Part shown: positions 34,646 to 46,533 of the stretch, in pieces
Layout: each line of letters opens with the position of its first letter
Position numbering within the stretch: the stretch's first letter is position 1
Origin: a virus
Taxonomy: Duplodnaviria > Heunggongvirae > Uroviricota > Caudoviricetes
DNA: 64,000 nucleotides
IMG/VR virus record: IMGVR_UViG_3300006033_000017
Direction: 5' to 3' (one strand)
Position numbers and translations under genes: made by a program
Notes under the pieces: generated by a model
The model's input: only the letters and a program-made list of their open reading frames with translations
Database searches by the model: none
What the model was told of the DNA's origin: nothing

Positions 34646-35845
34646 CTAAGCATTTTGCAATGTCTCGAATATCCGCGAATCTATAGGTTTGAAACCGGCA
34701 CCGTAAGGTCCGGTAAGGAATCGATTCAAAATATTCTTACTCGCGTTTGTATCCGCATTGTCTCCATGACCACAACTGAGACACAAGAACACCTCTCCGT
34801 TTCGATTCCTCTTATCGACATGACCACATAGCGGACAGGTGATACTGGTATTATAACACGAAACGGTTCTGAAGGAAACACGGTTTTCTTCACACCCCAT
34901 TTGTACCCGGTCTAACCAATATCGCCATACCCAACTGCCGATAACTCGACGCATACTTTTAGAGAGGCGTCGTCTCTCCTTTGCCTTATGGTTCAGATTA
35001 GATAACTTCTCCACAACCACAAGATCAATACTTTTATTAGTTACGATCTGCCTCGTAACTTCGTCTATTCGTTGTTTCAAGGCCCTACGAGCTTTCTTTT
35101 GGCCTTTCGATCCCTGATTACAACGATTGACTCTGTTCACACAATCTTTAATATCTCTACCTAATTGCTCTCCAGTAGAGAATGAAGCCAAAGCATTAAT
35201 CCCAGAGTCTATACCGATAGCATTGAGCCCCGTTTTCTTTGGACCAGTTTCAATCTCGAAACAGAACTGAACACTATCTCTGGTGATAATGTAGCTATTC
35301 AGTCTTGTTCCCAATTGATTCCATTTGTTGAAATGCTTGTGTTTTTTAATCGGAAGATCCATCACAATCTTATTGCCAATTGAAGCTAGATGCAACCAAG
35401 AATCAAATTCTGATGCTGCCTTTGAAGCCACTAACTTAGCAATGTTACAATTGGCGCAAATTCTATCTCCTTTGTGTGTCGGCTTAACGGGCTTGATTGT
35501 TTCTGCTTTTTGTCTTAATTGATTGGCCTTAACTTCGTATTTAGCTCTTTCTGCTTTGGCTAATAATCGTTTTTTCTCATTTTTGGCTTTCTCTTGAGAA
35601 GAATTAATCAGATCAATAGCTTCTCTTGCACAGACCTTTCTCATTCTATGAGAAAACCAAGAATCAGGGAGGTTGATTATATCTTTGAGCAAGTCTGCTT
35701 TTGTCGGGCATTTATCTAGTGCCCAGAAAGAATCAATGAAGATATTGCAGAGTCTTCCGTATTCGATCAACACAATGCTAAGCTCCTCTCTCTTTTTTAA
35801 GGTCGAGAATTTAAGGGTACATTGTGTTGACCGAATGATTTTCAC
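34646..35845 (-). CDS. tnpB: TnpB (IS605 OrfB-family RuvC-like, putative RNA-guided nuclease)
   Basis: RuvC-I GIDSGINALA, RuvC-II VVVEKLSN, zinc finger CPLCGH...CLSCGH, RuvC-III DNADTNASKNI; N-terminus MKIIRSTQCTLKF is typical. Confidence 0.8.
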   Translation of the reverse strand: MKIIRSTQCTLKFSTLKKREELSIVLIEYGRLCNIFIDSFWALDKCPTKADLLKDIINLPDSWFSHRMRKVCAREAIDLINSSQEKAKNEKKRLLAKAERAKYEVKANQLRQKAETIKPVKPTHKGDRICANCNIAKLVASKAASEFDSWLHLASIGNKIVMDLPIKKHKHFNKWNQLGTRLNSYIITRDSVQFCFEIETGPKKTGLNAIGIDSGINALASFSTGEQLGRDIKDCVNRVNRCNQGSKGQKKARRALKQRIDEVTRQIVTNKSIDLVVVEKLSNLNHKAKERRRLSKSMRRVIGSWVWRYWLDRVQMGCEENRVSFRTVSCYNTSITCPLCGHVDKRNRNGEVFLCLSCGHGDNADTNASKNILNRFLTGPYGAGFKPIDSRIFETLQNA

Positions 35846-36033
35846 TTACTGCCTTCTTTCAAAAATCGATCAATATCAGATAGCTTGTATAACCTTCGAT
35901 TACCTGGTGTGCGAATAGCCGTCAGACTTCCTTTTTCATCCCACTCTCTTAGGGTTTCTCGACGCACACCAATCATTTTGGCAGCCTCACCTATCTTAAT
36001 CATTTTATCATTTTCCATATCACTACCTTCCAC
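35842..36033 (-). CDS. MerR-like HTH DNA-binding protein (resembles the N-terminal domain of IS607 TnpA serine recombinase)
   Basis: IKIGEAAKMIGVRRETLREWDEKG helix-turn-helix; ATGA overlap with the tnpB start. Confidence 0.5.
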   Translation of the reverse strand: MEGSDMENDKMIKIGEAAKMIGVRRETLREWDEKGSLTAIRTPGNRRLYKLSDIDRFLKEGSK

Positions 36034-38238: not shown

Positions 38239-38742
38239 CTACCTGAAGAGTTTCTTAATCTTTCGAAGAAACTTCTTGGCCTCTTTTTGTACATTTGGTT
38301 CTGCCAAAGACAATAGAATTGACGAATTTGGGTCTCGTGTATATGTCTTATTTAATCTATTGTCTACAACATAACTCAAACAAATGTGATCCAATTTATT
38401 CAACGCAAAAATAGAATTAAGAACAGATATAGCAAAAGCATCAGCTTCATATTCATTTTGATAAAAAACTTCATCTCGATCAACATAACTGTGTCGAAAT
38501 AGAACATGCGCTATTTCATGAAGCAGAACATAGTAGTAGAGTAATGAGAATTTTGGCTTAACATAAATAGCAATATTCATGCCAAGACATGATCCCCAAT
38601 GTGCTGGCGAATCACCCTCATTGTGCTTAACGAGACGAATGTATCTCGCGGCACGAAGAAAAATACTATAGTAACGCGGCAATAGGATTCTTAAACTTAG
38701 ATACATCTTTGCTAGTTTGAATTTGTGTTTCAGAGACATCAA
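38239..38742 (-). CDS. ImmA/IrrE-family zinc metallopeptidase (M78)
   Basis: LHEIAHVLFRH (HExxH) plus downstream EYEADAFAISVL matches the M78 E-x-EA-x-FA-x-LL signature. Confidence 0.6.
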   Translation of the reverse strand: MMSLKHKFKLAKMYLSLRILLPRYYSIFLRAARYIRLVKHNEGDSPAHWGSCLGMNIAIYVKPKFSLLYYYVLLHEIAHVLFRHSYVDRDEVFYQNEYEADAFAISVLNSIFALNKLDHICLSYVVDNRLNKTYTRDPNSSILLSLAEPNVQKEAKKFLRKIKKLFR

Positions 38743-38753
38743 TTTGACCTTTA

Positions 38754-39350
38754 TTGAGAGTAATGATTGACCTCGCTGCCCTTACAACGATAAACCATCA
38801 GACTAACCCCATTATAGCACGACCGCAGCCGTTTGTTAAATCGCTTGACAACCCAATCACCCCATGGTATAATGATGATATGAAACCCATAAATCCAGTA
38901 TATGCGGCTCGTTTCGATGAAGCCAAATACTTACTAGAAAAACATCACGACCTATTTAGCGCTATTGTCTCTATTTCTGATAGAGAAGATGAGTTAATGC
39001 CACAAGCATTAACCCAAGACACCTATTGTCTGCGTCTAATCTTCACTGATACTGATGGTCGTCAACCTGACATAGCTATGTCTCTAGAACAAGCACAAGC
39101 TCTATATGATGCACTACCGACTATCACACAAGGAACAGGCACAATCCTGGTTCATTGCTCCGCAGGCTTGTGTCGCTCACCTGCGATTGCATATGTGATT
39201 ATGGCGTACCAATTCGGCCCCGGCAATGAAGCTCAAGCATACGCAGAGCTTTCTAAATTGAATCCTGTGATGCTACCTAACCAATGGGTGCTTAGTCAGT
39301 GCGAGAAGGTGATGCCGGGTTTTAAGTTACTACCAATTCTTAACAAATAA
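38754..39350 (+). CDS. Cys-based protein phosphatase (tyrosine/dual-specificity type)
   Basis: HCSAGLCRS = CX5R(S/T) P-loop. Confidence 0.6.
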   Translation: MRVMIDLAALTTINHQTNPIIARPQPFVKSLDNPITPWYNDDMKPINPVYAARFDEAKYLLEKHHDLFSAIVSISDREDELMPQALTQDTYCLRLIFTDTDGRQPDIAMSLEQAQALYDALPTITQGTGTILVHCSAGLCRSPAIAYVIMAYQFGPGNEAQAYAELSKLNPVMLPNQWVLSQCEKVMPGFKLLPILNK

Positions 39351-39776
39351 GTTGGGGGCTTCGCCCCCATCAACTATGCTATTCCAAAAGCCACTAGCCG
39401 TACTATTCCAACCACTTCCCACTAAACGCTTCGGAGTCGTCTCCAAGATCATATGTGCTAATCTCTTGCCAATCCCCTGTCGGCGATAATAAGGTGTAAC
39501 AAACGCAAAGATTTTATCTGCTACATTTAGATAAAGCGCAGGAGCACGCAAACACCAACCTATAATAAGACCGTTGGCATTAGTAGCAATTGCGAACTTA
39601 GAATCTATCCATTTGGGGTGCGTGGCAAGATCCGACTCATTCCTCTGCGCCGCGTTAATCATACCACGCATGATACTATGAGTAGGGATTGTTAGCTGCT
39701 TAATGCGTTCCTTCTCTTGCTCACTTAGGTTGTTAAATGTGGTTAATGTGTAATGTATATCGCTTATAGATCGCAT
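39330..39776 (-). CDS. GNAT-family N-acetyltransferase
   Basis: YYRRQGIGKRLAHMILE acetyl-CoA-binding motif (R/Q-x-x-G-x-G/A). Confidence 0.6.
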   Translation of the reverse strand: MRSISDIHYTLTTFNNLSEQEKERIKQLTIPTHSIMRGMINAAQRNESDLATHPKWIDSKFAIATNANGLIIGWCLRAPALYLNVADKIFAFVTPYYRRQGIGKRLAHMILETTPKRLVGSGWNSTASGFWNSIVDGGEAPNLFVKNW

Positions 39777-40522
39777 AATCTTCCATCGACATCATAGTTT
39801 AGCTCTAATTCGTTCTCGATGAGATGACAGAGAGATACATATCGCCTTCGATCATAATCCATGATAGCCTCATATGAAGGTAAGCGATTAGGATCAAACC
39901 AAAAGCTAACAATGGTGGAAATCAGACTCACCGTTGTTTCTGCGTCCTTAGGTACACTATTAAGTGACAACTCCATAAAGACGATATATTCATCAAGATT
40001 TCGACTATATACATCAGCGCCCGAGTACGAATCCGGCACACTGACTTCATTCAACAGCAGCAGTATCCTGTCTTCACACCCTAAAATTGCAGTCGGGATA
40101 TCGTCATATATGGGGTAAATGTATATGGCATCACTGGTCTGATTAAAAAGCGGTTCTACAGCAAATGGTATAGCGACACATGATTTAGAATTCGACGCAC
40201 AAACTCCAACACTAGGAAGTATACTGAGTAAACTCTTCAGTTGCTTAATGGTTGTGAGGGCATTCTCTAGGCGATAATCCATCACTATGTCATCGCAAAG
40301 GAATTCAACCGCATCATTACGAGAGATTGACTTAAGCACTTTCTCTAGGGTGTGAATGTGTGACCGCATCCATCGCTCATCATCATCTAATCTAGCGCAC
40401 CCCTCTTCGGGATCAATTTCCAGTACCTTACTCTGAAAGAAAGAGCCATCCTTAACACTAGTAAATCCACTAAATGGTAATTTGCGTAATTGTTTGGAAA
40501 TGTTGCGGCTGACCCTTTTCAT
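39764..40522 (-). CDS. GDDI-motif family protein, paralog 1 (252 aa)
   Basis: IYPIYDDIPTAILGCE core shared with four neighbouring genes. Confidence 0.5.
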   Translation of the reverse strand: MKRVSRNISKQLRKLPFSGFTSVKDGSFFQSKVLEIDPEEGCARLDDDERWMRSHIHTLEKVLKSISRNDAVEFLCDDIVMDYRLENALTTIKQLKSLLSILPSVGVCASNSKSCVAIPFAVEPLFNQTSDAIYIYPIYDDIPTAILGCEDRILLLLNEVSVPDSYSGADVYSRNLDEYIVFMELSLNSVPKDAETTVSLISTIVSFWFDPNRLPSYEAIMDYDRRRYVSLCHLIENELELNYDVDGRLCDL

Positions 40523-40718
40523 TGACTAGGCTCTCCTCTCGAATCATCCCAATGTAGTCATACTCATCCGCCAACAAAACAGTGATGTCTTCGTGCAAAC
40601 GATCTAGACAATGCCAAGTGTCTTCATCTAAGCAACTTTCCATTCTTTCCCCGAATAGTTCAGTGAAAGCCCTATAGCACCTATCTAGTGTTGCTTTGTA
40701 GACATCTAACTGTTTCAT
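40470..40718 (-). CDS. hypothetical protein (82 aa)
   Basis: ORF. Confidence 0.35.
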   Translation of the reverse strand: MKQLDVYKATLDRCYRAFTELFGERMESCLDEDTWHCLDRLHEDITVLLADEYDYIGMIREESLVNEKGQPQHFQTITQITI

Positions 40719-41278
40719 GGTACATCCCCTGTCAGAATATACCTTGTAGCCAAAGCCATCGCATGTGGTAACGCATCCGTATTAGTCACAGTTTGTACAG
40801 ACAAAGATAGATTTTGCCTACAAGGATACCTATGGCATGTTTCTTTCTCCCAGTATTCAATCTCCTCTGTCCATATGCGATATGTAACAAATCTATCTAT
40901 ATCATCTCCAAGCGAAAACCATATAATCTGACCATCAGAGAATTTTCGAGACACTATTACTGCATTGTTGTAAACCTTCCAGCCCCCCAAATTCAATATA
41001 CCATAGAGTCTTCGATGAGCCACTAATTCATCAAATATTCTATTAACTGTATCTTGGACAACTAACGAAGTGTGGCATTGGTTGTGAGCTACAAAATCAA
41101 AGATCCTATTCTTACACTGTTCCATTTCTTGAATTTGATCCTTAAACCAACGTAGTATCGGGGAGAAAGATATCAACTCTATAAGTTGCTTATTGGTGTA
41201 ACCAAAGTCATAAAGGGTATTATTCTTATTCGCCATATTTGTTGGGCGCGGGATAATATGCGCACTACATTGACTCAT
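40715..41278 (-). CDS. GDDI-motif family protein, paralog 2
   Basis: IWFSLGDDIDRFVTYR. Confidence 0.5.
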   Translation of the reverse strand: MSQCSAHIIPRPTNMANKNNTLYDFGYTNKQLIELISFSPILRWFKDQIQEMEQCKNRIFDFVAHNQCHTSLVVQDTVNRIFDELVAHRRLYGILNLGGWKVYNNAVIVSRKFSDGQIIWFSLGDDIDRFVTYRIWTEEIEYWEKETCHRYPCRQNLSLSVQTVTNTDALPHAMALATRYILTGDVP

Positions 41279-41810
41279 AAATCACCTTTTCACCAAGTGA
41301 AACATAGTTTCTGGCAACCCTATGTGCGGCGCGCATATCACTAACACATATGGGTTCTGGATCCCCATGCAGATCTCTACTCTCTCCCTGTTTCTCGAAG
41401 AGCTTCGCATACCAACGAAGCTCTTCATTAGGTCCCGATATATTGCCTGCCAATGCAAGTCTAGGGATATCGTCACCTATAGGGAAGAATAGTCGCAAAT
41501 TCCCACTCTCACCTAAAAGGCACAATTGGCCCAGCCACACCCCATGAATCAATTCAACATTGGCGCTATACGTATGCAACCGGCGCACCTGATCCAAATG
41601 CTTATAGACAATTGCCATCGCATCAGCTACAACATCACCAAAGTAATTGAACATGCTATGCATTCTACGCTCGCACTCATAAAGCTCAATATGCTTGCTT
41701 CTCAAATAGGATCTGCCGGGAATATTGCCATCTAGTAATGATGAAAATTCAGTGTTAGTAATACCAAAGTCTGCTAAATGACTTTCGAGTTGGTTCCTAT
41801 AGATTTCCAT
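41265..41810 (-). CDS. GDDI-motif family protein, paralog 3
   Basis: LFFPIGDDIPRLALAG. Confidence 0.5.
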   Translation of the reverse strand: MEIYRNQLESHLADFGITNTEFSSLLDGNIPGRSYLRSKHIELYECERRMHSMFNYFGDVVADAMAIVYKHLDQVRRLHTYSANVELIHGVWLGQLCLLGESGNLRLFFPIGDDIPRLALAGNISGPNEELRWYAKLFEKQGESRDLHGDPEPICVSDMRAAHRVARNYVSLGEKVIYESM

Positions 41811-41821
41811 GTTATCTCCAG

Positions 41822-42520
41822 CTACACATTATAGAATGGCGGATGAAGTCCATCTGAATCATACTGATCCGAAGTATGTTGGTCCGCATTCCATACCTTA
41901 ACACCCGCGATGATATATCGAATAATGCGTTCCTGCCATATATGATCAGAAATTGGCATAGAGCTAACCAGTAAATTCTCTTTGCAGGGGTACTTTTTGC
42001 TACTTTGCTGTCGCCAGAATTGAAGCTCTTTAGGGGCGCGGACAGCAAAACGGCCTATGTCATCACCTAAGGCATAGTATAAACCTGAACCATCAATCCA
42101 ATCTACCTTGTCACGGTCATAGATATCAAATACTGGCTTGCAATTAACAATAACTACCGCATTATAATTCTCTACGGCAAAGTTGGTGCAAATGTAGTAA
42201 ATCCGTTTTAGTAGGGTGATTTGTGCCGCAATTCTATTCTGCGCATTCAGTAACTTAACTCTCGCGTTAGTGTCGCTTGGCATAACCTTTGACATAATCT
42301 TGATCATGCGAGATTGTATAGTGGTCGCCTCTATCAACAACGCCCTAGCCCTCTCGGGATTTTCGACATCCCCGAGACAATAGAACTCGAAGATTCTATT
42401 GGCTAGATTGTTGGTAATCTCTAGATTCTCAAAGTAAACTATCGGTGTAATTGCTCGCCCCATATTGGTTTCGCTATTATAGGTTGGAACACTCATTTCG
42501 ACTCCTTCAGGAACAGGCAA
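41822..42520 (-). CDS. GDDI-motif family protein, paralog 4
   Basis: LYYALGDDIGRFAVRA. Confidence 0.5.
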   Translation of the reverse strand: MPVPEGVEMSVPTYNSETNMGRAITPIVYFENLEITNNLANRIFEFYCLGDVENPERARALLIEATTIQSRMIKIMSKVMPSDTNARVKLLNAQNRIAAQITLLKRIYYICTNFAVENYNAVVIVNCKPVFDIYDRDKVDWIDGSGLYYALGDDIGRFAVRAPKELQFWRQQSSKKYPCKENLLVSSMPISDHIWQERIIRYIIAGVKVWNADQHTSDQYDSDGLHPPFYNV

Positions 42521-43239
42521 TACTTCTTCTGAATGGTCTTTATCTCAAGATCCTTGATTACACCTTTTTGGATATAGTTCACAATACACGAAAATGCACC
42601 CTTGTCGCTAGAATAGTGATGCTCGATCATTCTTAAAGCATCGTTTAGCGCAATACCCGGATTATCCTTGGCAGCGGCTTTCAGTAGCTCCACAGTGTTT
42701 CTAAATTTCGAGAATCGCGCACCACCTGATGAGCCTGCATCCTTAAAGGTCTTCTGCCCCTCAAGCAGCGATTGTTTTATCCTCTTGCTATTTACACGCC
42801 TATGCAGAGCAGGCAGCGGAAGCTGCGTTACTGTCCCATCTAAGCATTCTTCATCATAGCTGCTTTTAGCGGTGGGCCGCACAGAAAAACAACCTATACC
42901 TTTGCTGCTTAAGACCGAGTTGATGAAGCTAATCTCACGATAATCCTTCTTGGGAGTTGGTATTGCTATAGATACCCTATGAGCATAAGGTAGCCATTGA
43001 TTAGCCTGAGCAAGTAATTGAAAGCTGAGTGTCCTTTTGCATTCAATTACCCAGATCACCCCATCCCTAACCGCAACGATATCAGCTACGACTTCGGAAC
43101 CAAGATGCGGCAAGAAGACAGGAACTTCCTGATATACATCCCAGTTCTCATTAGTGAGTTCATCCACAACAGGTCTAGCGACGTGGCGCTCACTACTAGG
43201 CCAAGATGATTTAGGTAGTTTCTCCCGTGTCTTTCTCAT
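42493..43239 (-). CDS. PD-(D/E)xK restriction-endonuclease-fold protein
   Basis: VADIVAVRDGVIWVIECK fits a D...(D/E)xK nuclease core. Confidence 0.4.
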   Translation of the reverse strand: MRKTREKLPKSSWPSSERHVARPVVDELTNENWDVYQEVPVFLPHLGSEVVADIVAVRDGVIWVIECKRTLSFQLLAQANQWLPYAHRVSIAIPTPKKDYREISFINSVLSSKGIGCFSVRPTAKSSYDEECLDGTVTQLPLPALHRRVNSKRIKQSLLEGQKTFKDAGSSGGARFSKFRNTVELLKAAAKDNPGIALNDALRMIEHHYSSDKGAFSCIVNYIQKGVIKDLEIKTIQKKYCLFLKESK

Positions 43240-43663
43240 AAGCTGCTAGTTTAGCTCTGAGTTCCTCTATTTGAGCCTCTAGGTCTTTCCTAATCTCAGT
43301 AGGTGTTTTACCATTCGGGCGCAAGATGATCACAGAGATCCTTTCGTCAGTGTTAGCTATGTTATACGTAACTTCTAGGAAATTGATGGCATTATGCGCA
43401 TCCAATAACTCCATAAAAGACTTCGTTGTCACCATAAGCAACCATTGCGGCCCGTCGATACAAATCTTAAGGGTATCCTCATCCATACTATTGATGTAAA
43501 TATCCTTGAATGTAGCCAAATCACCAGTTTCTAGGAGTTTTACTTGGTCAATAGCATATTGTTGACAACCAGCCGCATATTGTTTTAATTCTTCAGGTGA
43601 CAACTCATCAAGATTAACTTGAAGATTAAGAAGTTGCCCCTTACTATTCACTACCTCATTCAT
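43211..43663 (-). CDS. hypothetical protein (150 aa), coiled-coil C-terminus
   Basis: ORF. Confidence 0.4.
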   Translation of the reverse strand: MNEVVNSKGQLLNLQVNLDELSPEELKQYAAGCQQYAIDQVKLLETGDLATFKDIYINSMDEDTLKICIDGPQWLLMVTTKSFMELLDAHNAINFLEVTYNIANTDERISVIILRPNGKTPTEIRKDLEAQIEELRAKLAAYEKDTGETT

Positions 43664-43904
43664 TACAGACTCCTTTTGCTATCCATTCTTCCACTAGACA
43701 GATGAAATCCCAAGTTAGCAGTGTCTTTCCACATCGACGCCCTAAGGCTAATAGTTCATCCGCATGAGCAAGCAGTTTAGGTTCACAAAGGGCTTCATCA
43801 TAGACTGGCCCCATCCATCCTGAATGACTCAGGATATCTATTTGATGCGAAGATCGTGCCATATGCGCGTCTCCTGATCTTGCCACATCCCCATAGCGAC
43901 CCAA
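43656..43904 (-). CDS. hypothetical protein (82 aa)
   Basis: ORF. Confidence 0.3.
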   Translation of the reverse strand: MGRYGDVARSGDAHMARSSHQIDILSHSGWMGPVYDEALCEPKLLAHADELLALGRRCGKTLLTWDFICLVEEWIAKGVCNE

Positions 43905-44377
43905 TGCCGCGCAATGGCCCGCGCGGCATCGATATCTGCTACTTTAGAAGCACCAATAGCAGAAAGCCCTTTGGGCGATTTTGTAACATAATCAACTGGT
44001 AACTGATAAAACTCGACATTGAGTTTTTGTTTATCGTATACTGCTATCCGATGAATATCATCTCTAGCAGACAAAAATATCACGTCATTACGAAAACTAT
44101 CAACCTCATACTCTCCTACCGGAATACCGTCCAATATTAACACATGCTGACAACGCGCCCACCAGTGAGCCATCGCCAATATTTGTAAAGATTGATCGCG
44201 AAAATCATTGAAATCATCAGGGGGCAGAATATTCAGATCTCGAATCTTGATATAGTAGCCATAAATGCTATTGTAATAATCCGCAGTCTCTAAATGAGTT
44301 AATTCACTATCTTCAAAATGGTTCACACACCCTGTCCGATACAATGGGGAGAGCAACCATATTGGTATACTAGACAT
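43838..44377 (-). CDS. GDDI-motif family protein, paralog 5
   Basis: IFLSARDDIHRIAVYD. Confidence 0.45.
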   Translation of the reverse strand: MSSIPIWLLSPLYRTGCVNHFEDSELTHLETADYYNSIYGYYIKIRDLNILPPDDFNDFRDQSLQILAMAHWWARCQHVLILDGIPVGEYEVDSFRNDVIFLSARDDIHRIAVYDKQKLNVEFYQLPVDYVTKSPKGLSAIGASKVADIDAARAIARHWVAMGMWQDQETRIWHDLRIK

Positions 44378-44699
44378 TGCGCTCTCGCTTTCTCGACTTG
44401 CGCTTCTTCTTTATCTCAAAGATGAACTCACCCTCATCTGTAATCTTCACTCGCATTGGGACGACATGCCCCGCTGTAAGTCGCCAATGAGCTTCTTGGA
44501 GCTTAGCCTCCATCTCATCCGTAACCCATGGCGCACTTACTATCTTGCTCGGCACACCATTTTCATCCTTAGAGTATACGTTGCAATGTTCGTGTCCGCA
44601 AATTGCCATATTAATCTTGGGTCGCGCATCTTCAACATAGATACGGGGTAGAGATATATGTACATCCCCTAGATCATAGGTTGCGACGATCTCACTCAT
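44370..44699 (-). CDS. hypothetical protein with basic C-terminal tail (109 aa)
   Basis: ORF. Confidence 0.4.
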   Translation of the reverse strand: MSEIVATYDLGDVHISLPRIYVEDARPKINMAICGHEHCNVYSKDENGVPSKIVSAPWVTDEMEAKLQEAHWRLTAGHVVPMRVKITDEGEFIFEIKKKRKSRKRERNV

Positions 44700-44708
44700 G
44701 GCTGTTTC

Positions 44709-44981
44709 CTATTCTTGGATAGCAAGCCTACCGGCTTCTGTCAAACTACCATAAAGTGCTGTGTATTGTGAATCGCCACCCTCAGTAACACTCATCCAAC
44801 CTTCGCGAATGGCAGCATTCCAAGCTTCGATAATATCGGGGGCCAATCTACGCATTTCATGCCCATCCATCATCCAGCTATTATCGGGGTTCTTGAATGC
44901 TCGCCTTAAAACTTCAAGGGTAGATTCAGTCTCTTTGATGGCGAAGGCTTCTTGTACGGTTTTCGCAATGTTCTTTTTCAT
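44709..44981 (-). CDS. hypothetical protein (90 aa)
   Basis: ORF. Confidence 0.35.
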   Translation of the reverse strand: MKKNIAKTVQEAFAIKETESTLEVLRRAFKNPDNSWMMDGHEMRRLAPDIIEAWNAAIREGWMSVTEGGDSQYTALYGSLTEAGRLAIQE

Positions 44982-45406
44982 TATGCTACTCTACTTAGTT
45001 GTTGCGCTGGAGATAAAAAATCCTTGACCGCACGCATAGCAAACTCACGGTTCATAAGATTAATGATCTCACTACGGATTTGATGTGACCCTTCGTATTC
45101 ATTAATTGGGAATACGGTGGCTGCGGGAATATTGGGGTAAGCTGAAAGTAAAGAAACAAGTAATTCAAAAGGGTGAATCTCAATTAATACACAAGCTTCT
45201 TCAACCAATCCAACGAGATAATAGTACTTTTGTCCCAAAGCTTCTTCTCTATGAAAATCAAAAGCCAATACAACCCATTTATTGTCTGACGTGAGCACCC
45301 ATTGACTACCAAGGGCCGAGCCCTTCATAGGAGCCAATAAGTTATTTTCATAGCGGTTTTTAACCTCATGATCTAATCTTTGCTTTAGGGCGTCATTGCT
45401 TATCAT
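44981..45406 (-). CDS. hypothetical protein (141 aa)
   Basis: ORF. Confidence 0.4.
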   Translation of the reverse strand: MISNDALKQRLDHEVKNRYENNLLAPMKGSALGSQWVLTSDNKWVVLAFDFHREEALGQKYYYLVGLVEEACVLIEIHPFELLVSLLSAYPNIPAATVFPINEYEGSHQIRSEIINLMNREFAMRAVKDFLSPAQQLSRVA

Positions 45407-45728: not shown

Positions 45729-46493
45729 TTACACCTCAACGTGCAATAGCTCAGATATAGCAAGGCCGCGCCACTTGGTCTTACCAGTTTCGCCGCTGCA
45801 AACCCTATGCATATCTGCAAACCACCAATGCGCAGGCTCCAATACCATCAACAATGTATTGAGCCAACCACGACTTGGTTGTTCCTTAGGATCCAAGGGT
45901 GTAATACCGGGAATCTCGAATCTAGCAGGAGGCTGATGGGATAGAACAATGTCAACCCCACCCACTGCTTCGACATTAGCAATGGCTTTATTGATTTGCT
46001 CCTCGCTAATAGTCTCCTCTTGGAACCATGTATGAACTGCCTTCTTGGGGAAATACCTCATGGCTTCCTGGAACTTCTTGTTCCTATGTTGCTTGTCCCA
46101 AGGCACAGAATCCCCACCGCCCATAAAGAGTATTTTCGCGCCGTCAATTTCAAGAACAGTACCACGAGGCACATACGTAACAATGCCACCCTCGCTTGTG
46201 TCGCAGGGGCAAGGTGTGGTACCATGATAGATACCGTCTTTGATCATTTGGTATTGATCTTCATGATTACCATCTATCCACAGAAAGTTGACGTGCTCGG
46301 GCACGGTGACCTCTGGGGGCCACACAGGAACCTTATGCTGCCCGGAGGTGAGGTGACGGGGCCAGTAGCCCATTTCGCCCAGGCAGACCAACGTAGCGCC
46401 GTTAGGAGCCGCCTGGGCCACCGTGGTAACGGCGTTCTGGGCCGCAGGCCAGTCCGCGTGGATGTCGCCAATGAGGTATAAAGACATGAGCAT
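45729..46493 (-). CDS. calcineurin-like metallophosphoesterase
   Basis: LIGDIHAD (motif I) and WIDGNHED (GNHE motif III). Confidence 0.7.
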   Translation of the reverse strand: MLMSLYLIGDIHADWPAAQNAVTTVAQAAPNGATLVCLGEMGYWPRHLTSGQHKVPVWPPEVTVPEHVNFLWIDGNHEDQYQMIKDGIYHGTTPCPCDTSEGGIVTYVPRGTVLEIDGAKILFMGGGDSVPWDKQHRNKKFQEAMRYFPKKAVHTWFQEETISEEQINKAIANVEAVGGVDIVLSHQPPARFEIPGITPLDPKEQPSRGWLNTLLMVLEPAHWWFADMHRVCSGETGKTKWRGLAISELLHVEV

Positions 46494-46504: not shown

Positions 46505-46533
46505 ATTATAGCACACCGGACGCGAATCGTCAA
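46505..46533 (-). promoter_or_regulatory. sigma70-like promoter TTGACG-N17-TgcTATAAT
   Basis: minus-strand read upstream of the metallophosphoesterase gene. Confidence 0.5.

Follow-up and report, generated by a model that had tools for sequence, protein, structure and literature searches.

DDIxR genes in the gene block

The DNA analysed here is the 64,000-nucleotide (nt) stretch of IMG/VR record IMGVR_UViG_3300006033_000017 (the window). Between positions 46493 and 39330 it carries a block of about 16 minus-strand genes that are co-oriented and tightly packed, and this block contains all the members in the window of a family of small proteins sharing the sequence D-D-I-x-R, referred to below as DDIxR proteins. 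Their genes, named B, C, D, E and F, are found in the order E, F remnant, x1, N, D, C, B, that is, as two tandem sub-clusters split by two unrelated genes, x1 and N (Table 1). An earlier note on this DNA, made from the sequence alone, had described a five-member paralog family consisting of A, B, C, D and E with the nuclease-like gene N among them. The six open reading frames (ORFs) are present on the minus strand at the coordinates claimed and the motif strings quoted for the five proteins are correct. A diversified, co-oriented family is really present at the locus, but it consists of four intact genes and one remnant rather than of five intact genes; B, C, D and E are true homologues, while the membership of A was not supported. 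Independent gene calls on an identical contig agree with these ORFs except for the start of D. For this gene they begin at the ATG at 42496, which has an AAGGAG ribosome-binding site; the TTG at 42520, taken as the start in the earlier note, probably lies too far upstream.

The relationship among the intact genes was evident in several comparisons. B is closest to D, with a phmmer expectation value (E-value) of 1.6e-10, and YPC(R/K)(Q/E)NL is common to both. When profiles from which one member had been left out were compared with the 319 six-frame ORFs of the window, the omitted member was always the top match among non-members, with E-values of 0.0026 for C (profile of B, D and E), 0.015–0.02 for E, and about 1e-9 to 1e-10 for B and D. 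The alignment by hhalign of the sub-group E, E′ and F′ with the sub-group B, B′, C, C′, D and D′ had a probability of 94% and an E-value of 9e-8 over 88 collinear columns that span a beta-rich region, the motif and the C-terminal helix. Primed letters denote sequences from a related phage, represented by 1–2-kb fragments (L003, L005 and L007 from JGI 3300014204, L006 from ERZ27247350 and L004 from SRR6484787). Among the six-frame ORFs of the window, B, C, D and E are the only ones with the pattern DDI.R, which has exactly four occurrences against an expected 0.39; the bare DDI is found 12 times, two of them in A. The view that unrelated ORFan genes share the motif by chance could appeal to pairwise identities of only 17–25% among the paralogs and to several pairs that are individually non-significant (E–D, C–D, F′–B, F′–C and F′–D), C being the weakest intact member in pairwise comparisons (E-value 0.007–0.02 to B and B′). 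Nonetheless, the sub-group alignment, the recovery of every omitted member in first place, the restriction of DDI.R to these ORFs and the presence of three collinear conserved elements effectively refute it for B, C, D, E and F. The paralogs are not connected by repeats at the DNA level, which indicates that the duplications are old, and a recent duplication was dropped from consideration for the same reason.

The family profile was built from 9 sequences (the members in the window, their orthologues and F′). Across the five paralog lineages, which have an overall identity of about 20%, only D-D-I-x-R and one C-terminal Gly are invariant, and both Asp residues, whose conservation the earlier note had proposed to check, are present in B, C, D, E, the orthologues and F′. 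A hydrophobic strand comes before the motif and h-A/V-h (h, hydrophobic) after it; the residue before the two Asp residues is Gly in B, C and D and Arg in E and F. The C-terminal helix that ends in the invariant Gly is also a shared element of the family, and an N-terminal L-x-x-x-G-x-T-N and an E-x-x-(F/Y)-(W/Y) strand are looser common elements. The proteins are soluble, have 179–224 amino acids (aa) and isoelectric points of 5.4–7.8. A role as DNA mimics was discarded because they are not strongly acidic.

The member that had been overlooked is represented in the window by the short ORF x2. It retains the N-terminal 55 or so residues of F and, as its last 11 or so residues, the C-terminal EEWIAKGVCNE, while about 111 codons including the DDIxR core have been deleted in frame; the junction of the deletion has just a weak TCAT microhomology. 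The family profile matches x2 at an E-value of 8e-5. In the related phage an intact F′ of 172–193 aa is encoded directly after the orthologue of E (L003:875/938–1456; also in L004). It carries YFTIRDDILRHAV and the family C-terminal WVARG, and its phmmer comparison with E gave an E-value of 2.6e-6. By these sequence comparisons, x2 is what a deletion has left of a sixth paralog lineage (F, after A to E).

Gene A, in turn, has a motif without the invariant Arg (DDIPT). The 9-sequence profile placed it at rank 12 with an E-value of 5.4, and hhalign of the family against A gave a probability of 1% (P = 0.054), the aligned stretch being the motif region. Three short resemblances to C and B are collinear (FSGFTS, PIYDDIP and RRYVSL). 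At the nucleotide level, the 21-nt stretches that encode P-I-(Y/G)-D-D-I-P in A (40095–40115) and C (41464–41484) are equal at 18 of 21 positions, a match that is not significant alone because the region has many chance repeats of about this length. A search of 5.8 billion proteins for relatives of A returned only A itself and close orthologues, and A also evolves unlike the family (Table 2). Coincidence is the most likely explanation of its motif; a very distant kinship to the family is conceivable, and the sequence statistics give it no support.

Table 1. Positions in the window of the DDIxR genes, of the genes next to them and of other features
Feature	Coordinates	Strand	Description
Paralog B	40715–41278	-	187 aa; motif FSLGDDIDRFVT
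Paralog C	41265–41810	-	181 aa; motif FPIGDDIPRLAL
Paralog D	41822–42496	-	224 aa from ATG 42496; motif YALGDDIGRFAV
Paralog E	43838–44377	-	179 aa; R-DDI-x-R subtype; motif SARDDIHRIAV at residues 103–113
F remnant (x2)	43656–43904	-	82-aa ORF from TTG; 68 aa from ATG 43862
Gene N	42493–43239	-	248 aa; SPO1 gp1.5-like; PD-(D/E)xK signature
Gene x1	43211–43663	-	150 aa; phrog_14583; no similarity to the family
Gene A	39764–40522	-	252 aa; ORFan; family membership unsupported
Sigma-70-like promoter	46505–46533	-	TTGACG-17-TATAAT, extended TG; head of the block; near-consensus match only
Terminator-like hairpin	39353–39369	-	G+C-rich, then T-run; convergent end of the block; consensus match only
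GNAT-like gene	39330–39776	-	adjoins the array
Phosphatase-like gene	38754–39350	+	adjoins the array; dual-specificity phosphatase-like, HCSAGLCRS; DSPc 2e-6, below gathering score
HEIAH gene	38239–38742	-	adjoins the array; 167 aa; HEIAH metalloprotease motif; weak Peptidase_U49 (Lit-like) match recorded on the contig
Small regulator-like gene	35842–36018	-	HTH_17/MerR-type
TnpB-like gene	34646–35845	-	TnpB/Cas12f1-like_TNB protein; phrog_506 transposase, 5e-22

Divergence from a related phage

The genes of the window were compared with their orthologues in the related phage, a single, diverged relative, and nonsynonymous (dN) and synonymous (dS) substitution rates were calculated (Table 2). 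Proteins of the family have changed 2–10 times faster than those of their neighbours, with dN values of 0.09–0.42 as compared to 0.015–0.05 in y1, x1, N, a2 and A. The dN/dS ratio of every family member is 0.28 or lower. This is net purifying selection, which indicates that the members of the family are real genes.

Table 2. Divergence of DDIxR genes and neighbouring genes from their orthologues in the related phage
Gene	aa identity (%)	dN	dS	dN/dS
E	46	0.42	1.55 (saturated)	0.27
F, N-terminus	64	0.24	0.87	0.27
B	81	0.104	0.37	0.28
C (part)	83	0.089	0.58	0.15
D	84	0.096	0.77	0.13
a2 (neighbour)	89	0.052	0.44	0.12
A	93	0.036	0.49	0.07
N, C-terminal part (neighbour)	96	0.017	0.42	0.04
x1, N-terminus (neighbour)	96	0.015	0.64	0.02
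y1 (neighbour)	96	0.026	0.28	0.09

The most divergent member is E, whose orthologue in the comparison is the protein P0006, although the DNA flanking the gene is about 95% identical. Upstream of E, in y1, the nucleotide identity to the relative is about 95%; right at the E start codon it drops to about 50%, and it is partly regained, to 75–83%, around the junction of E and F (44377–43905 compared with L003:426–950). Since dS is saturated too, E looks like a distant allele brought in by recombination rather than like a gene that underwent acceleration in place. In B, C and D the substitutions are unevenly distributed. The N-terminal helices of D and C share 95–100% identity with those of their orthologues and the C-terminal halves 71–79% (L005 and L007 compared with 39851–42870), whereas the orthologue of B has the opposite pattern, 73% in the N-terminal and 96% in the C-terminal part. 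These differences along the sequences hint at mosaicism.

Searches, structure models and neighbouring genes

The distribution of the family was studied in several sequence collections. When 1.84 billion representative proteins were searched exhaustively with an HMMER profile, only B, C, D, E or their orthologues and P0006 were returned, together with one spurious coiled-coil match. A word-indexed search of 5.8 billion proteins with D and the 9-sequence family profile found D itself and close orthologues only. There was no match to D by tblastn in 50,697 phage records, scans of IMG/VR with the family pattern and with N returned nothing, and a metagenome scan with N recovered only a 1-kb contig that was already known. 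Among PDB sequences the family profile detected helical or coiled-coil noise only. When the nine members were individually scanned against Pfam, PHROGs and PADLOC (E-value ≤10), no family was matched by more than one paralog lineage; with regard to known defence and anti-defence families, there was no consistent PHROG match and no PADLOC match. The earlier note had not recognized the motif as belonging to any named family, and none was matched in Pfam, PHROGs, PADLOC, the PDB sequences or the large protein sets. Judged by these searches, the family is restricted to one rare phage clade. A search of the literature on comparable tandem arrays of early paralogs yielded nothing specific.

A loose resemblance of the motif to the core of minimal nucleotidyltransferases had also been put forward. 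Like these members of the Pol-beta superfamily, DDIxR proteins have two neighbouring acidic residues that come after a small residue where a hydrophobic strand ends. However, the upstream hG[GS], the hG[GS]-x(9-13)-Dh[DE]h spacing and the third carboxylate are not seen in the alignment, the Gly before the Asp pair is Arg in E and F, and none of the nine members matched an NTP_transf-type or other Pfam nucleotidyltransferase profile at an E-value of 10 or lower. The proposed likeness was therefore abandoned. A palm-domain polymerase, whose motif C is GDD with motifs A and B before it, was rejected as well: the family has no conserved upstream Asp, its proteins have 179–224 aa as opposed to more than 250 aa, and no significant match to a polymerase profile or fold was obtained.

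Models of D and E were generated by AlphaFold2 from one shallow family alignment. The predicted local distance difference test score (pLDDT) was 51 for D and 61 for E, the latter with a predicted template modelling score of 0.54. The E model consists of two long N-terminal helices, six strands over residues 78–145 and the C-terminal helix; the strand that follows the motif and the terminal helix are the best-predicted parts. The model places DDIxR in a beta-hairpin, at the turn that joins strands 3 and 4, a location that must be taken as tentative. No known fold was matched by the two models, both of which are of low confidence.

The gene N, located between the two sub-clusters, had been described as nuclease-like. 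Its product matches phrog_12193 with an E-value of 1.2e-23, and tblastn identified SPO1 gp1.5 and relatives of it in SPO1-like Bacillus phages and in the deep-sea thermophilic phage D6E. The hosts of the phages that carry this conserved putative nuclease family have an unusual range. Alignment of N with SPO1 gp1.5, D6E ORF42 and Shanette gp57, with identities of 27–32% over about 80% of its length, showed that D53, E66, K68 and Q78 are invariant, as are E17 and E38. The first four of these residues are covered by matches to Hjc (15.9 bits, cut-off 21.1) and NERD (16.0 bits, cut-off 22.1), which are below the gathering thresholds, and by a weak resolvase match; no relative of N was found among PDB sequences. 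The conserved D...ExK of the SPO1 gp1.5-like alignment thus supports, at the motif level, the description of N as a putative PD-(D/E)xK-type protein, with membership in a curated nuclease family not established. A pairwise BLAST of E against N gave an E-value of 6e-4 over 76 residues and led to the idea that the family derived from the C-terminal half of N. This match was not reproduced at the profile level, where the hhalign probability between the family and N was 0.1%, and the idea was dropped, as was the classification of the DDIxR proteins themselves as PD-(D/E)xK nucleases. N appears to be unrelated to the family and is probably a bystander whose place inside the array is incidental.

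Shine-Dalgarno-like sequences precede D (at ATG 42496), C, B, x1, the F remnant (at ATG 43862) and A, and several of the genes overlap by 4 nt. Both features fit genes that are translated and coupled. The −10 hexamer of the promoter-like sequence at the head of the block ends about 11 nt before the ATG (46493) of a gene for a Metallophos phosphoesterase, so that the leader would be very short or absent, unless the start is located downstream, at M3. The annotated genes of the block are only those of this phosphoesterase, a GNAT-like protein and the nuclease-like protein. The block includes no recognisable structural gene, and the neighbours of the family are small enzymes and ORFans.

The region is identical to part of a metagenome contig of 157 kb (ENA ERZ27247451 k141_1195142) that is found in a Logan assembly too, and a megablast of positions 39000–45000 against the 50,697 phage records found no near DNA match. 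Vibrio and Aeromonas phages that measure about 157 kb encode homologues with 26% identity to a 429-aa protein encoded near the locus. The products of other genes in the window include an SPFH/Band_7-type protein, a TnpB-like transposase and an endolysin or amidase; the source is therefore a tailed phage that is large and uncultured. A search for tRNA genes in the 64-kb window found none. The gene for the TnpB-like protein lies beside a small HTH_17/MerR-type gene (Table 1), and the pair may represent an insertion of the IS200/IS605 type.

Possible functions of the DDIxR family

The earlier note considered tandem diversification of this kind typical of host-range or anti-defence arsenals. This idea is consistent with the faster protein evolution of the family, the allele swap at E, the decayed copy of F and the setting in an accessory operon. 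We propose, with a probability of about 0.4, that the DDIxR proteins are diversified host-interaction proteins of the early or accessory kind, active in host takeover or counter-defence, that combine one biochemical core with differing target surfaces. All paralogs would have the same biochemical action, exerted by the conserved acidic hairpin, which could bind a metal or a basic ligand or form a common interaction core. The variable helical and sheet surfaces would then steer the paralogs to different, fast-changing partners, most likely host proteins met early in infection. Several points weigh against this proposal. The role in anti-defence or host takeover is proposed only by analogy with other fast-evolving phage accessory loci. 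The dN/dS ratio is well below 1 in every member, so positive selection was not demonstrated, and the rates come from the comparison of one pair of phages, one of them fragmentary. The placement of the motif in a hairpin comes from models with pLDDT values of 51 and 61. The promoter and the terminator are consensus matches of a sort that is not enriched overall in the region, where the total count of promoter-like sites is not above the shuffled expectation. Finally, an invariant Asp pair with an Arg at about 20% identity is no less compatible with a catalytic or metal site than with a binding scaffold. A bolder version of the proposal, in which DDIxR is an undescribed fold forming a modular counter-defence arsenal, is doubtful. 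Each paralog would present the acidic hairpin to neutralise a different immune or housekeeping target of the host, and recombination would shuffle alleles between phages, which would account for the swapped E and the decayed F.

The last of the points just listed leads to a different view, in which the paralogs are small enzymes. The Asp pair, with the Arg, would form a divalent-metal or substrate site, for example for phosphoryl or nucleotidyl transfer or for hydrolysis, and the proteins would differ in substrate instead of acting as stoichiometric binders. That D-D-I-x-R and one Gly are the only residues kept over five lineages is what could be expected from an active site, and the low-confidence model puts the Asp pair at the turn of a beta-hairpin, a geometry that serves metal binding in several enzyme folds. 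The genes nearby also encode enzymes or enzyme-like proteins (Metallophos, GNAT, dual-specificity phosphatase, PD-(D/E)xK-like). However, no enzyme family was matched by sequence or fold, the alignment has no second conserved cluster of acidic or His residues as found in a typical two-metal site, and the Gly before the Asp pair is not kept in E and F. In addition, an in-frame-deleted copy and an allele swap to 46% identity within conserved flanks are rare for enzymes. Taken together, these considerations make small enzymes a rather unlikely but serious alternative. Less likely than either host-interaction proteins or enzymes are two further possibilities. In one of them the family serves N, for example as inhibitors, immunity proteins or specificity subunits, and the whole block is a nuclease-centred system. 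The location of N between the sub-clusters, the 4-nt overlap of its stop with the start of D and the pairwise BLAST match of E agree with such a partnership, which is nevertheless quite improbable: the profile comparison was null, the homologues of N are encoded in SPO1-like Bacillus phages and D6E, no DDIxR protein from outside the clade was retrieved by the profile search, and the genes flanking gp1.5 in SPO1, in the neighbours checked, are unnamed small gp genes. Furthermore, N is 96% conserved with a dN/dS of 0.04 while the family is variable, a decoupling that would be unexpected for co-evolving partners. The other possibility is that the proteins are associated with the virion or its assembly (such as internal proteins, ejected proteins or chaperones) and were duplicated in tandem. 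The proteins are small and soluble, and T4-like phages have tandem, highly variable internal-protein loci. Since no structural gene could be recognised in the block and no PHROG structural family was matched, this explanation is the most improbable of those considered for the function of the family.

If the proposed role in host interaction were correct, the DDIxR proteins would be a new family among the host-interaction and counter-defence genes of phages, and the natural variants (five paralog lineages, a swapped allele and a deletion) would aid the mapping of specificity. Mainly, the locus is an example of the birth, diversification and decay of lineage-specific multigene families in the accessory regions of phages. 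The earlier reading is also corrected, in that the family has four members and one remnant and no link to nucleotidyltransferases.

Lineage-specific paralog families are common in the accessory regions of phages. The hyperplastic regions of large lytic phages, the internal-protein/IPI* locus and the Alt/ModA/ModB paralogs of T4, and the clusters of anti-CRISPR genes are comparable in kind, an analogy that implies no membership. The T4 internal proteins, Alt, ModA and ModB and the anti-CRISPR proteins have no sequence or fold relation to the DDIxR family. The likeness resides in the organisation and history of the loci. As in other fast-evolving early multigene loci of phages, the genes at this locus are small, co-oriented and tightly packed ORFans with tandem paralogs and faster protein evolution, and they are accompanied by allele replacement, gene decay, a setting of accessory enzymes and a promoter-like site of the host type.

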